DNA of 6,136 bases, from positions 1-6,136 of IMG/VR virus record IMGVR_UViG_2778261249_000001. One strand, written 5' to 3'. This DNA comes from a virus. Taxonomy: Duplodnaviria; Heunggongvirae; Uroviricota; Caudoviricetes. The translations under genes and the position numbers were made by a program. Below, in pieces: positions 1,269-4,117 of the stretch (position 1 is its first letter; every line of letters begins with the position of its first letter). The notes beneath the pieces were generated by a model that saw only the letters and a list, made by a program, of their open reading frames with translations, ran no database searches and had not been told where the DNA came from.

Positions 1269-3149
1269 TTAATACTCCGTCACGTTTTCCTGTCGCCACG
1301 CCTCGTCATATTCCGATTTCGGCATATTGGCGATGTAGCTATATGGCGATCCTGATTCAAGTTGCAGGAACTGGTGCGATTGCTCGTCAAGGAACAACGG
1401 GACACCACCCTCCCAACCTTCGCCGTTACGTTGTTTTTCAAGCATCAAAACAGATGCCGGAGATGCCAGTAGCTGTTCGTCCTTCTCTGACATCTTTTCA
1501 CCACTCTGAACTCTCTGTAACGCTCTCTCGCGAGCCTTGTTACGCCAGATGATGAAAAGGTTGTCTGTCAGGTCTGTTATCGCTCCAGAGCCTTTTACGT
1601 CCATTTTCCCGGTTGGTTTTTCTTCGCTGTCTCCTTTTCGCGAGTGAGTAACGAGAATGACGTGGGAGTTTGTTTTGTTTTTGAAGTCGCAAATCGAGTC
1701 AACAAACGCCTTCTGCCCGTTATAGTCATCGTCGCCTATGCCACATTTCATCAGGCTGTCGATGATGAATAACTGGATCCCGTATCGGCGGCGAGCGTAG
1801 TCGAATATTTCGATCAGCCTGTCGGCTTTCGCCGTTCCGGTCAGGCCAAACACCCAAAGTCTTTCGTCATAAAATTTAAATGCAGAGTCAATTTCCAGCA
1901 CTGGCGGCATCTTGCAGCACGTCGCCTGACGGGTAAGGCGCTTAAGGAGAATACCAGGCTTCAGCTCAAGTGACGCGATGCACGTCTTCACACCCTGACG
2001 CATTGCCTCAAGTGCCATATGCCCGACAACCTCCGTTTTTCCGTGACCGTTCACACCATTGACCAGCGTCAACTCGGCCTCACGGAACTGGAATTTATCT
2101 GCCAGAGATTCCCACGGTGGATTAAACAGATACTGCTGCTTGCCGTAGAAAGCGTTGATAGTGTCCTGGTAAAACTCTCGCGCGCTGTAGAGTTCTTCAG
2201 GGTCGAAGTAGGATGCCGTGCCGATGTACTGCCAGATTTCATCCTCGGTAACACCGTTCATCAGGCATTCGTTGATGTCTTTGTACGGCAGAGTAACAAG
2301 ACGGCAACGATGTTCACCGAGTCGGCTTGCGATTTCCCTTGCGGCCTCACGACCAACATCATCAACGTCCATCGAGATGAATATTTCCTCAAACCTGTCG
2401 AGGTTGTGATACTCAAACTCAATCCACTGTTGCTTAGCGCCTTTCCCGCCACCAAACGGCACGGATAACGCCGAGATGCCGTATTGCGCATAGCTCATAC
2501 AATCAATTTCGCCTTCGCAAAGTACAACCGCCCTCACGCCAGCGTCCAGAGCCTGCCATCCGAACAGACAAGGTTCGCAATCACCTTCTGCCATAATGAC
2601 TTTCTTCCCGTCCGGGCGCTCAGTGCTGATTCGCTTGACCTGCAACAACTCACCATCGCGCTTGTACGGAAGCACCAGTGCATCAAGTTCTCGTTCTCCA
2701 TTCCACACCTTGCCGCTGACAACCTCGTAGCGCTTTACGACTTCTGGCGATATGCCACGCGATTGCAGGTACTCAAGATGGGATTCTGTTCTGGTAACGT
2801 AGCGGGCGATTTTCTTGCGGTCAGGTCTGGAGAATTTCTTCTCACGTTTGGCATCGAAATGGTGATCGTCATCCTTGATTCCGAGAAAGGCTTTCGCTTC
2901 CTGCATAGCCTGATGCAGGTTAATTCCACGACATGCCATCCACAAATCAAGCATGTCACCGCCGTCTCCCTCAGCGAAATCAGCCCATTTTTTCTTGCCG
3001 CTAAGGTTGACCTTAAGGCTGTTTCCCTTGTCACCGTTGACGTTACCGGCAACCCACTCATGCCCCTCTTTCTTGCCGTTTGGCAACAGGTGCGGAGCCA
3101 CCCTGTCAACCTGCGCCCAAAGCAGGTCACTGAGTTCACTTGGCGTCAT
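1269..3149 (-). CDS. Bifunctional DNA primase/replicative helicase, 626 aa (Toprim primase domain plus RecA-fold DnaB-like helicase domain)
   Basis: ORF-track ORF. Toprim signatures: conserved Glu in VVLCEGEIDCMS and a DxD motif in ISMDVDDVG. Helicase Walker A LVNGVNGHGKTE and Walker B-like LFIIDSLMK. SD GAGGGA lies 3 nt upstream of ATG 3149. Occupies the position of lambda P. Confidence 0.9.
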   Translation of the reverse strand: MTPSELSDLLWAQVDRVAPHLLPNGKKEGHEWVAGNVNGDKGNSLKVNLSGKKKWADFAEGDGGDMLDLWMACRGINLHQAMQEAKAFLGIKDDDHHFDAKREKKFSRPDRKKIARYVTRTESHLEYLQSRGISPEVVKRYEVVSGKVWNGERELDALVLPYKRDGELLQVKRISTERPDGKKVIMAEGDCEPCLFGWQALDAGVRAVVLCEGEIDCMSYAQYGISALSVPFGGGKGAKQQWIEFEYHNLDRFEEIFISMDVDDVGREAAREIASRLGEHRCRLVTLPYKDINECLMNGVTEDEIWQYIGTASYFDPEELYSAREFYQDTINAFYGKQQYLFNPPWESLADKFQFREAELTLVNGVNGHGKTEVVGHMALEAMRQGVKTCIASLELKPGILLKRLTRQATCCKMPPVLEIDSAFKFYDERLWVFGLTGTAKADRLIEIFDYARRRYGIQLFIIDSLMKCGIGDDDYNGQKAFVDSICDFKNKTNSHVILVTHSRKGDSEEKPTGKMDVKGSGAITDLTDNLFIIWRNKARERALQRVQSGEKMSEKDEQLLASPASVLMLEKQRNGEGWEGGVPLFLDEQSHQFLQLESGSPYSYIANMPKSEYDEAWRQENVTEY

Positions 3150-3253
3150 GATTCCCTCAGATTGAGATTTTTAAACCAGAAATCGACAAACGAAATACTT
3201 AACCAGCCGTGGTTATAACCAGCGACCAGTAGCGATTTGATTTTTGATTTCAT
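3146..3253 (-). CDS. Candidate 35-aa ORF filling the gap between the O-like gene and the primase/helicase (MKSKIKSLLVAGYNHGWLSISFVDFWFKNLNLRES)
   Basis: ATG 3253-3251 lies 3 nt after the O-like TGA stop, with AGGTGA just upstream. Its TGA stop (3148-3146) overlaps the primase/helicase ATG as ATGA. Hand-translated; the frame is open across the whole 107-bp gap. Short and AT-rich, so it may be chance. Confidence 0.3.
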   Translation of the reverse strand: MKSKIKSLLVAGYNHGWLSISFVDFWFKNLNLRES

Positions 3254-3256
3254 GGT

Positions 3257-4117
3257 TCACCTGTCGAAAAACACGTAGCCAGTTTTCGATACGGTGATTG
3301 CGGATGATGGTTTGGATTGTGGTTGAATAGTTTCTGGCTTCTCGTCGTTCCAGCGCTGACCGTTCAGGTAGCTCGATGGTAACAACCTGTCGAATCCGAA
3401 CTGCTTACCATTCCTGCATGCGATGTCTTCTGCCAGCATCGTGGCAAACTCGCTTGCCGTACCCTTGGTAGTTTTACGCCATTCCCTGAACTGTGTTCTG
3501 AATGCCGTAGCTGCGTTTTTCTTCCCGGCTTTCCGCATGCCTGCACACCAGAATATTTCCTCGAATGCCTTGTCGGTTTCTTCGTGACGGTCAGGTGATT
3601 TTTCACACTCCGTCCGAACACTTTCGGACATAGTGTTTTTATTATTTCTTTTTTCTTTTGTAATAGTTTCTTTTGTGTGTCCCTGTTTTGGTGACAGCGC
3701 TGTCACCGTTTTGGTGACACTTTTTGTCACCAATGCAGTGACATTATCACCAGTGTAGTGACATCCTTCGATTTGCCATTCCTCGATGTTCTTGTTAGGC
3801 CCGATTTGCTGGCCTTCGCGAAGGATAACCTTCATCGCGATAAGCTCATTCTTGGCCTTGTTTACCTTCTGTCTTGGCAGCCTGGTAATTTGAGCTAACT
3901 GACTATCAGAGATGCGATCCATCTTTTTACCGTAGCCGTATGTTTTACGGCATATGGCGTGGGCAACCTTGCTCTGATTTTTCGTTAAATCAGCGCCGAT
4001 AAGCTCTTCATACAGGGCATTTGCAAGACGGGTATAACCATCTTCAACTTCTGCCACACGACGCTCCACAGGCCGTTGTGAAGGCCTTAAATGTGTTACG
4101 GTTGCAAGATTACTCAT
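3257..4117 (-). CDS. O: Replication initiator, lambda O family (N-terminal iteron-binding domain O-like, C-terminal domain diverged from lambda O)
   Basis: ORF-track ORF. The N-terminal part (…[27 protein letters not shown]…[22 protein letters not shown]…GPNKNIEEW…[14 protein letters not shown]…) aligns by eye with lambda O. The C-terminal 120 aa do not resemble the lambda O P-binding domain. AGGAG lies 8-9 nt upstream of ATG 4117. Confidence 0.9.
3635..3680. other. AT-rich tract adjacent to the iterons; candidate DNA-unwinding element of the phage origin
   Basis: gtttttattatttcttttttcttttgtaatagtttcttttgtgtgt is strongly A+T rich and lies immediately 3' of the iteron block in gene orientation, the same arrangement as lambda ori inside O. 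Confidence 0.55.
3690..3763. repeat. Origin iterons: about seven copies of GGTGACA/TGTCACC arranged as inverted pairs inside the O-like gene
   Basis: GGTGACAgcgcTGTCACC (3690-3707, perfect 18-bp palindrome), GGTGACActtttTGTCACC (3713-3731), AGTGACAttaTCACC (3737-3751) and AGTGACA (3757-3763). Heptamer starts are about 11-12 bp apart. They lie in the inter-domain linker of the O-like ORF, where lambda carries its ori iterons. Confidence 0.65.

Follow-up and report, generated by a model that had tools for sequence, protein, structure and literature searches.

How does a lambda-like prophage start DNA replication when its early-right operon holds an O-like initiator and no P gene? We address this question in a 6,136-nucleotide stretch of tailed-phage DNA (IMG/VR record IMGVR_UViG_2778261249_000001, positions 1 to 6,136; hereafter, the window). 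Three open reading frames on its minus strand, lying 3' of cI-cro-cII and a DUF2740 ORF in what is the early-right operon of a lambda-like prophage, encode in turn an initiator of 286 residues (3257-4117), a protein of 35 residues (3146-3253), and a protein of 626 residues (1269-3149). All three ORFs are intact and translationally coupled, the stop codon of the 35-residue ORF overlapping the start of the 626-residue gene (ATGA). The best explanation of the locus, to which we assign a probability of roughly 0.6, is that of an ES18-type module whose initiator recruits the phage's own primase-helicase of the T7 gp4/Twinkle type.

An ES18-Type Replication Module in Place of O-P

The three ORFs constitute the gp59-gp60-gp61 replication module of phage ES18, which is common in lambdoid phages and has been known since 2005. 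The ES18 gene order is matched one by one: the initiator is 67% identical to gp59 overall and about 94% identical in its C-terminal half, the 35-residue ORF is 97% identical to gp60 (PHROG 21848, E 4e-26), and the 626-residue protein is 94% identical to gp61. The GenBank annotation of this ES18 region contains the entries "similar to lambda gpO," "similar to lambda ori," and "putative primase/helicase; similar to phage T7 gene 4," and Casjens and colleagues reportedly presented the module in 2005 as the gp59 initiator, gp60, and the gp61 primase/helicase. We found the small ORF in all 80 IMG/VR loci (in one of which the contig end cuts it) and, at ~50% identity, in Fraca, CharmingMan, and LMessi; it is absent from the Vibrio phages and, judged from a gap of 10-18 bp between initiator and primase-helicase, from some Providencia and Xenorhabdus prophages. 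Past the primase-helicase stop codon by 30 bp lies an intrinsic-terminator-like hairpin on the minus strand (1215-1239), with a 10-bp stem and then a T-run (TTTTTATT), whose position may be analogous to that of lambda tR2, which precedes the nin region.

Profile searches returned no match to Phage_lambda_P (PF06992) or PHROG 109 for any ORF of the window, and neither Pfam nor PHROG searches identified a P, DnaB-type, or DnaC-type gene within it; Rfam found no RNA family there. A preceding sequence-only reading had proposed that an O-like initiator and a Toprim primase/helicase replace lambda O-P, and this is borne out by Pfam, PHROG, and PDB homology far above chance and by the lack of P: domain searches matched Phage_rep_O, Toprim_2, AAA_25, and DnaB_C, and both primase and helicase motifs are present in the 626-residue protein. 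Its picture of the P slot as a single fused primase-helicase gene needs amending, for the protein is confirmed but the slot holds two genes, the 35-residue ORF having been overlooked. Nor is the module a discovery: its annotation and discussion go back to the ES18 genome, and with the gene content on record for so long, such a claim adds little.

The 626-Residue Primase-Helicase

The large protein matches PHROG 239 ("DNA primase/helicase"; E 2e-171) and, among PDB entries, T7 gp4 (E 2.7e-23) and Twinkle (E 6.5e-14), from which its activities are predicted; its model gives fold matches to 1nui, 6n9u, and 2au3. The TOPRIM catalytic core of the primase (2262-2525, minus strand; Pfam Toprim_2, residues 209-296, E 3e-12) aligns E212, D261, D263, and D291 with E157, D207, D209, and D237 of T7 gp4, and two basic residues, K172 and K182, line up with K122 and K128 of the T7 protein. 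The SF4 helicase domain (DnaB family, RecA fold; 1368-2087, minus strand) is matched by AAA_25 (residues 357-507) and DnaB_C (residues 355-594). Its Walker A motif spans G365-T372 (2034-2057), residues K371, E395, D464, and H502 align with T7 K318, E343, D424, and H465, and a KQRNGEG motif with R574 fits, by inspection only, the arginine-finger motif of the DnaB family. The C-terminal tail of the helicase carries a conserved W..N.T.Y motif. Judged by these alignments, the catalytic residues of both the TOPRIM and the SF4-helicase domains are intact. An N-terminal domain of the DnaB type (Pfam PF00772) is absent.

What it has instead at its N terminus is a zinc-ribbon-like domain (residues 1-95; 2865-3149, minus strand) from which all four zinc-ligand cysteines are missing, C73 being the single cysteine in this region. 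The AF2 model nonetheless aligns to the ZBD and RPD of Aquifex DnaG (2au3, E 7e-13) and to the ZBD of Bacillus stearothermophilus DnaG (1d0q), indicating that the ribbon fold is retained, and the Cys-less ribbon motif LLPNGK.eG.EW.aG..GE.G.SLKV..G.W.DFA.G..GDLLDLW is kept down to 38% identity. TIGR01391 (dnaG) matches residues 26-143 with E 9e-10, under the curated family cut-off (37.9 vs. 283.6 bits).

The Initiator and Its Putative Origin

The initiator (minus strand) is homologous to lambda O and ES18 gp59. Residues 20-114 match Pfam Phage_rep_O (PF04492; E 1.2e-37, 128.8 bits vs. a cut-off of 28.7), and the protein also matches TIGR01610 phage_O_Nterm (E 1.7e-30, 105 bits vs. a cut-off of 45.5); the stretch covered by the two models (3776-4060, minus strand) corresponds to an N-terminal winged-helix domain predicted to bind the iterons of the origin. 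In lambda O, residues 1-162 bind the origin, according to work cited in PMC2629481. Lambda O (residues 1-155) is 49% identical to the window's initiator over about residues 1-157 only (BLASTP), and the profile of the lambda O family, PHROG 277, covers residues 1-211 only. BLASTP finds no similarity to lambda O beyond residue 157, and an hhalign comparison of the initiator's C-terminal family with that of lambda O yields a probability of 0.4%, i.e., no profile similarity. By these comparisons, the initiator is a chimera of a lambda-O-family N-terminal domain and a C-terminal half with no detectable relationship to lambda O.

Within the initiator coding sequence lies what is, by its layout, a lambda-style putative origin consisting of iterons, an A-rich tract, and a palindrome. 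Four iterons of the form TGTCAC-N7-GTGACA (3678-3763; repeat families D1/D3) are spaced 20-24 bp apart, and these four clustered matches with at most one mismatch compare with 0.2 expected per window. Their register agrees with that of the four iterons in lambda ori, with which the whole putative origin is collinear. The adjoining A-rich tract (3640-3677, on the top strand of the initiator gene; AT skew -0.35 to -0.41) is near-identical to the A/T-rich tract of lambda ori, ACACAAAAGA.ACTATTACAAAAGAAAAAAGAAA, and by this likeness is a presumed DNA-unwinding element; just to its right is a 14-bp inverted repeat (I5; 3605-3636). Past the A-rich tract, similarity to lambda stops while that to ES18 goes on, and the match to Stx2 phages, phi24B among them, begins at ~3641, placing a module junction at ~3640.

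A Shared Core and a Partner-Specific Tail

The C-terminal half contains a conserved core (residues 179-265; 3323-3583, minus strand) predicted to form a three-helix bundle plus a short helix, with an AF2 pLDDT of about 90. We identified 368 cluster representatives of this core at E<=1e-3, sharing the motif FW.AGmrK..K..A..F...FA..L..Di..R...fGFdklhP.tYLNg.RW.DE; the family has no Pfam model. In other bacteria, homologues with 30-49% identity are encoded directly 5' of helicases of the DnaB type, of DnaC/IstB-like loaders, and of genuine Phage_lambda_P loaders (a P-linked form occurs in Rodentibacter), so the core alone cannot encode specificity for a primase-helicase, and its role may be generic. 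From the company its homologues keep, the core is a widespread domain that is not specific to the primase-helicase.

The 20-60-residue tail that follows the core is the only part that covaries with the type of partner, and it is conserved within each class. In the window, this tail (residues 266-286; 3260-3322, minus strand) is a candidate docking peptide for the primase-helicase: its motif, [ST]V[ST]K[ST]G[YL]VF[FILY], is kept in enterobacterial initiators that precede a primase-helicase and is missing from homologues whose partner is DnaB, DnaC-like, or P-like. The exception to this rule comes from Vibrio, where initiators that accompany a primase-helicase carry a PDWMRG tail like that of DnaC-linked ones.

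Distribution and Inheritance of the Module

The module occurs at 88-99% DNA identity in mEp043, Sf101, epsilon34, g341c, and Stx2 phages such as phi24B, is present in 298 of 5,426 complete Escherichia coli genomes, and in its ES18 type is carried by SEN22 and Min27 as well. mEp043 and Sf101 contain the whole module of the window at about 98% DNA identity, the three ORFs being 98-100% identical. Its residence in plaque-forming phages (mEp043, Sf101, ES18, and epsilon34) argues that the module is functional.

The C-terminal half of the initiator, the 35-residue ORF, and the primase-helicase form one block, found behind three different N-terminal DNA-binding domains: that of the window, the lambda type (ES18), and an HTH_36 type (phi24B). 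The primase-helicase follows the initiator in 79 of the 80 IMG/VR loci, the remaining one being cut by a contig end, and in 20/21 loci from Enterobacterales genomes; in Fraca-type and Vibrio phages the two codiverge (59-61% identity for the primase-helicase, 40-53% for the O C terminus). The sequence-only reading had held that the C-terminal domain is unrelated to the P-binding domain of lambda O, which agrees with the lack of BLASTP and profile-profile similarity, and that the initiator C terminus is fitted to the phage helicase. The latter holds in part: inheritance as a block with the primase-helicase speaks for it, but the core is shared with other partners and only the tail tracks the helicase.

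Proposed Mechanism and Alternatives

Taking every step from lambda and T7, we infer the following course of events. The N-terminal domain would, in the manner of lambda O, assemble on the iterons and destabilize the A-rich tract, and the C-terminal region, most likely through its partner-specific tail, would recruit the hexameric phage primase-helicase. This enzyme would load itself on the exposed single strand like T7 gp4, with no DnaC- or P-type loader, and would unwind the DNA and probably prime it for the host's DNA polymerase III. The phage could then do without host DnaB and DnaC, which is a reasonable inference by analogy, and probably without DnaG too; independence of DnaG is less certain because the zinc ribbon lacks all four cysteines, even though the catalytic residues are intact. 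Our literature search returned no experiment on which host genes are needed for replication of the ES18 or phi24B type. In favor of an initiator that recruits the phage's own primase-helicase are the domain homology and conserved catalytic residues, the lambda-collinear origin, the missing P, DnaB-type, and DnaC-type genes, the identity with ES18, the block inheritance, the linkage in IMG/VR and Enterobacterales loci, the codivergence, the tail motif that tracks partner class, and the plaque-forming carriers. Against it stand the occurrence of the core next to other partner classes, the PDWMRG tail in Vibrio, and the missing zinc ligands, to which we add that no polymerase is encoded in the window; host Pol III normally contacts DnaB through tau.

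The lost cysteines bear directly on priming. The zinc-binding domain of T7 gp4 is required for template recognition, so de novo priming by a ribbon without zinc ligands is not assured, and animal Twinkle has lost both its zinc ligands and its primase activity; Twinkle is among the structure and sequence matches of the window's protein. The primase half might likewise be inactive or unable to start primers alone, leaving a helicase whose lagging strand still needs DnaG. We consider this unlikely given the conservation of the TOPRIM and basic residues relative to T7, and the strong conservation of the Cys-less motif argues for a retained function; moreover, DnaG docks on the N-terminal domain of DnaB, the very domain that is absent here. 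A quite different alternative is that the initiator never touches the enzyme. The core would serve generically in origin melting, single-strand binding, oligomerization, or contact with a host factor, the primase-helicase would load itself on any single-stranded DNA, as T7 gp4-type helicases do, and the tight linkage would reflect nothing more than the genes' closeness in one operon and a hot spot of recombination at ori. The pairing of one core domain with four unrelated partner classes fits this view, as does the mosaic-exchange junction exactly at ori, which would by itself hold together all that lies to its right. We nevertheless regard it as rather doubtful, since the tails differ systematically by class and are conserved inside each, and since the matching half of lambda O, its C-terminal half, binds the loader P.

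Fragmented primase-helicase genes in some endosymbiont copies (Arsenophonus and Symbiopectobacterium) might suggest a prophage remnant, decaying or cryptic, in which the module does not serve replication, a highly improbable reading that is effectively refuted by the three intact, coupled ORFs of the window and their near-identity to those of plaque-forming mEp043 and Sf101. Returning to recruitment by the initiator, we tentatively suggest a broader generalization, which is possible though not the likelier outcome: the core, possibly DnaD-like, could be a universal platform by which initiators of proteobacterial phages recruit SF4 helicases or their loaders, with a short exchangeable tail choosing the partner (T7-type primase-helicase, DnaB, DnaC-like, or lambda-P-like). 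In the window, the tail would dock a self-loading, zinc-free primase-helicase, giving a lambdoid replicon that does without host DnaB, DnaC, or DnaG and still uses host Pol III.

Significance for Stx Phages

The Stx2a-converting phages phi24B and Min27 carry this module, and in the records of such phages the primase-helicase is mislabeled "P," a label that invites lambda-based assumptions about replication control and the amplification of Shiga-toxin genes. If the proposed mechanism is true, these phages bypass host DnaB, DnaC, and DnaG, and host or drug effects acting through these proteins would not apply to them. The module would also offer a tractable system for studying the handover of DNA from an origin-binding initiator to a helicase of the T7 type that loads itself, and the coupling of this kind of helicase to Pol III. 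The "Eru" classes of Stx phage replication regions cover other module types, not the ES18 type (PMC8044961).

Comparison with Known Systems

ES18 and phi24B differ from the window in the N-terminal part of the initiator. ES18, whose origin likewise lies within the initiator gene, has an initiator N-terminal domain and iterons of the lambda type, to which the window's domain is just 47-49% identical and from which its iterons differ; phi24B has an unrelated HTH_36 domain, as well as an intein in the helicase P-loop. With lambda O-P the window shares the early-right position after cII, the O-family N-terminal domain, and the four iterons and A-rich tract inside the initiator gene, but it has no P, the C-terminal half of its initiator is dissimilar, and its helicase is phage-encoded, whereas lambda hijacks host DnaB.

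The primase-helicase resembles T7 gp4 and Twinkle in combining zinc-ribbon-like, TOPRIM, and SF4-helicase domains in a single chain with conserved catalytic residues, and differs from them in its low identity (about 25%) and its lack of zinc ligands. T7 starts replication from transcription-primed origins with its own polymerase; unlike in T7, the window's enzyme follows an initiator dedicated to origin binding, and the phage is a temperate one with no polymerase gene seen in the early region (window and ES18). A further related system is the gene 18/gene 12 module of P22, an O-like initiator and a phage DnaB-type helicase (PMC8022706, PMC10307801), in which, too, a lambdoid initiator is paired with a phage SF4 helicase in place of a loader. 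According to Wickner (1984), as cited in PMC8022706, P22 gp12 is homologous to DnaB and acts together with the host primase DnaG, whereas the helicase of the window is of the T7 type, with a primase fused to it.

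Results

The 6,136-bp window corresponds to a lambdoid prophage's immunity and replication region, in which the early-right operon occupies the minus strand. It encodes cI (4987-5688, +; Peptidase_S24 and HTH_3), a cro-like HTH protein (within 4702-5088, -), cII in the early-right operon (within 4289-4642; Phage_CII, E 9e-48), a DUF2740 ORF (4110-4256), an O-like initiator (3257-4117, -), a 35-aa ORF (3146-3253, -; PHROG 21848), a 626-aa primase-helicase (1269-3149, -) and, downstream of the latter, three small ORFs (1016-1204, 668-991, and 384-668, all -) from function-unknown families (PHROGs 36993, 15705, and 343). 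The DUF2740 stop is overlapped by the initiator start, the 35-aa ORF begins 4 bp past the initiator stop codon, and its own stop shares an ATGA with the start codon of the 626-aa gene; given this spacing, initiator, 35-aa ORF, and primase-helicase look translationally coupled. The window lacks genes for a P, DnaB-type, or DnaC-type protein and for a polymerase. A strong terminator-like hairpin (12-bp stem and T-run; 4313-4340, +) is antisense to the cII 3' end, at the site where the lambda oop antisense RNA terminates, and a bidirectional one stands directly past cI (5719-5740, both strands); an Rfam scan of the window reported no family.

The initiator matches Pfam Phage_rep_O over aa 20-114 (E 1.2e-37) as well as TIGR01610. 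Its BLASTP similarity to lambda O stops at aa 157, the lambda-O PHROG covers aa 1-211 only, and hhalign of the window-type C-terminal domain (141-sequence alignment) against the lambda-type domain (43 sequences) gives a probability of 0.4%, so that the two C-terminal domains are, as had been claimed from the DNA, unrelated at the sequence level. An exhaustive HMMER search (E<=1e-3) finds the domain in 368 cluster representatives, nearly always at the C terminus of 250-350-aa proteins, and its core (initiator aa 179-265) shows the conserved motif FW.AGmrK..K..A..F ... FA..L..Di..R ... fGFdklhP.tYLNg.RW.DE. One Roseovarius MAG chromosome (OX638333.1) has five separate loci (L142-L146) for the same 245-aa core-bearing protein (33% identity), which points to either a multi-copy element or an artefact of assembly.

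Linkage of this C terminus to the primase-helicase is tight. The initiator N-terminal domain is lambda-type in Salmonella phage ES18, an unrelated HTH_36 in phi24B, and a third type in the window; common to all three are the initiator C-terminal half (~94% identity), the small ORF, and the primase-helicase. Of the 80 IMG/VR loci whose C-terminal domains are closest, all have the small ORF, and the primase-helicase follows in 79, the remaining locus ending at the contig end. It also adjoins the initiator in 20 of 21 Enterobacterales loci (one genome per species; C-terminal identity at least 44%), and is decayed in three endosymbiont genomes of the one-genome-per-species scan. In Fraca-type coliphages and the Vibrio phages ValSw3-3 and 1.135.O, initiator and primase-helicase have diverged together.

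Core homologues at 30-49% identity have a different partner gene directly downstream: a DnaB-type helicase at nine loci (e.g., Microbulbifer; Pfam DnaB and DnaB_C), a DnaC/IstB-like loader at six (e.g., Haemophilus), and a bona fide lambda-P loader in three Rodentibacter prophages, all three matching lambda P at E ~1e-18 to 1e-19 and the one scanned, L120, matching Phage_lambda_P at E 3.6e-41. Among phages, the partner is DnaC-like in Skulduggery, DnaB in PHS3, annotated P-like in PE001, and weakly P-like in PVA1 and D65. The tails that follow the core (aa 266-286 in the window) end with ...[ST]V[ST]K[ST]G[YL]VF[FILY]D or a related ...VF[IV]... element in enterobacterial primase-helicase-linked initiators, with P[DE]W[AM][KR] in DnaC-linked ones, and with ...GTWGIGRKLNVDPSLIPEFLK in P-linked ones; of the DnaB-linked initiators, an extra ~100-aa domain occurs in five out of nine (L116, L119, L122, L125, and L138), and others (L151, L156, L159, and phage PHS3) have a short tail at the end.

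The 626-aa protein matches Pfam Toprim_2 (aa 209-296) and AAA_25 and DnaB_C (aa 355-594), PHROG 239 "DNA primase/helicase" (E 2e-171), and the solved structures of T7 gp4 (E 2.7e-23) and Twinkle (E 6.5e-14). An AlphaFold model of aa 1-330 (pLDDT 83.7) matches the Aquifex DnaG zinc-binding and RNA-polymerase domains (2au3, E 7e-13), the T7 gp4 primase fragment (1nui, 6n9u; E ~1e-10), and the isolated DnaG zinc-binding domain (1d0q). Mapped onto T7 gp4, residues E157, D207, D209, D237, K122, K128, K318, E343, D424, and H465 correspond to E212, D261, D263, D291, K172, K182, K371, E395, D464, and H502, respectively; the set of SF4 helicase motifs is full, with KQRNGEG (R574) assigned by inspection as the DnaB-family arginine-finger motif. 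The N-terminal ribbon keeps the DnaG/T7 fold with none of the four zinc ligands, and Pfam finds no DnaB-type N-terminal domain, a possible DnaG dock. The C-terminal tail (aa 600-626; 1269-1349, -) reads ...SEYDEAWRQENVTEY, with W618, N622, T624, and a terminal aromatic conserved in the clade; it aligns, perhaps fortuitously, with ...STDWSNDTDF of T7 gp4, an acidic tail with an aromatic end through which that enzyme binds the T7 polymerase.

The conserved 35-aa ORF (MKSKIKSLLVAGYNHGWLSISFVDFWFKNLNLRES) is ~50% identical in the distant coliphages Fraca, CharmingMan, and LMessi; Vibrio phages lack it, as do, judged from intergenic spacing, some Providencia and Xenorhabdus prophages that carry both large genes. 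A 342-aa intein interrupts the Walker A P-loop (GHGK / TEVV) of the primase-helicase in phi24B "P" (L003:2505-5411) and two IMG/VR loci (L048, L054), with LAGLIDADG_3 above and Hint/Hom_end below the Pfam cut-offs and Ala, not Cys or Ser, as first residue; the window's protein has no intein. A free-standing 164-aa NUMOD4 and HNH_3 homing endonuclease gene (L006:5307-5801) sits precisely between the 35-aa ORF and the start of the primase-helicase gene, and the same 491-bp insertion recurs in L016, L019, L038, and L074. Together, these insertions make the primase-helicase gene a recurrent selfish-element target.

Discussion

The main new point is that the core defines a broad family, without a Pfam model, that is paired with every SF4 helicase/loader class, true lambda P included. 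We infer that the initiator C terminus may combine a generic core with a partner-specific tail; only the tail tracks the partner, and imperfectly, because Vibrio primase-helicase-linked tails resemble DnaC-linked ones. The sequence-only reading is partly supported. Its O-like initiator and fused Toprim primase/helicase without P are borne out by Pfam (Phage_rep_O, Toprim_2, AAA_25, and DnaB_C all matched), PHROG, and structure matches, and the 626-aa protein does occupy the P slot, with an overlooked 35-aa ORF in between. A C terminus adapted to the phage's own helicase fits the linkage and co-divergence, but the pairing of the same core with DnaB, DnaC-like, and lambda-P partners points another way.

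The mechanism proposed for the module appears plausible. With full SF4 motifs and no P, DnaB-type, or DnaC-type gene, independence from host DnaB and DnaC would be the economical expectation. The case for DnaG independence is weaker, given a ribbon without zinc ligands, although conservation of the cysteine-less motif in relatives down to 38% identity argues that the ribbon still does something. We found no experimental paper on host DnaB/DnaC/DnaG independence or Pol III coupling.

The window's replication module is already known. Megablast of the region matches 350 phage records, at ~98-99% in vB_EcoP-720R6, mEp043, and Sf101 and ~88% in ES18, epsilon34, and g341c; in Stx2 phages (phi24B, Min27, F403/F451, and others) the match spans the primase-helicase to the initiator C-terminal half, and 298 of 5,426 complete E. 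coli genomes carry 1269-4117 at >=95% identity. The same module has been described in epsilon34 (PMC2629481). GenBank labels the primase-helicase of phi24B (HM208303) and Min27 (EU311208) replication protein "P", yet it is unrelated to lambda P, and the likeness of phi24B "O" to O-family proteins is confined to its C-terminal half. The ES18 GenBank record lists gp59 as "similar to phage lambda gpO", gp60 as unknown, gp61 as "putative primase/helicase; similar to phage T7 gene 4", and a rep_origin "similar to lambda ori".

Inside the initiator gene, TGTCAC-N7-GTGACA occurs four times at 3678-3763 (0.2 matches expected per window), next to an A-rich tract (3640-3677) that is itself followed by a 14-bp inverted repeat (3605-3636). 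Similarity of phi24B-type Stx2 phages to the window starts at ~3641. In an alignment with lambda and ES18, the four iterons fall in register with those of lambda ori, and the A-rich tract is almost the same as lambda's; likeness to lambda ends directly past the tract, whereas that to ES18 runs on beyond it. These breakpoints mark the origin as a mosaic joint, with an exchangeable iteron-binding half on one side and all that lies to its right on the other.
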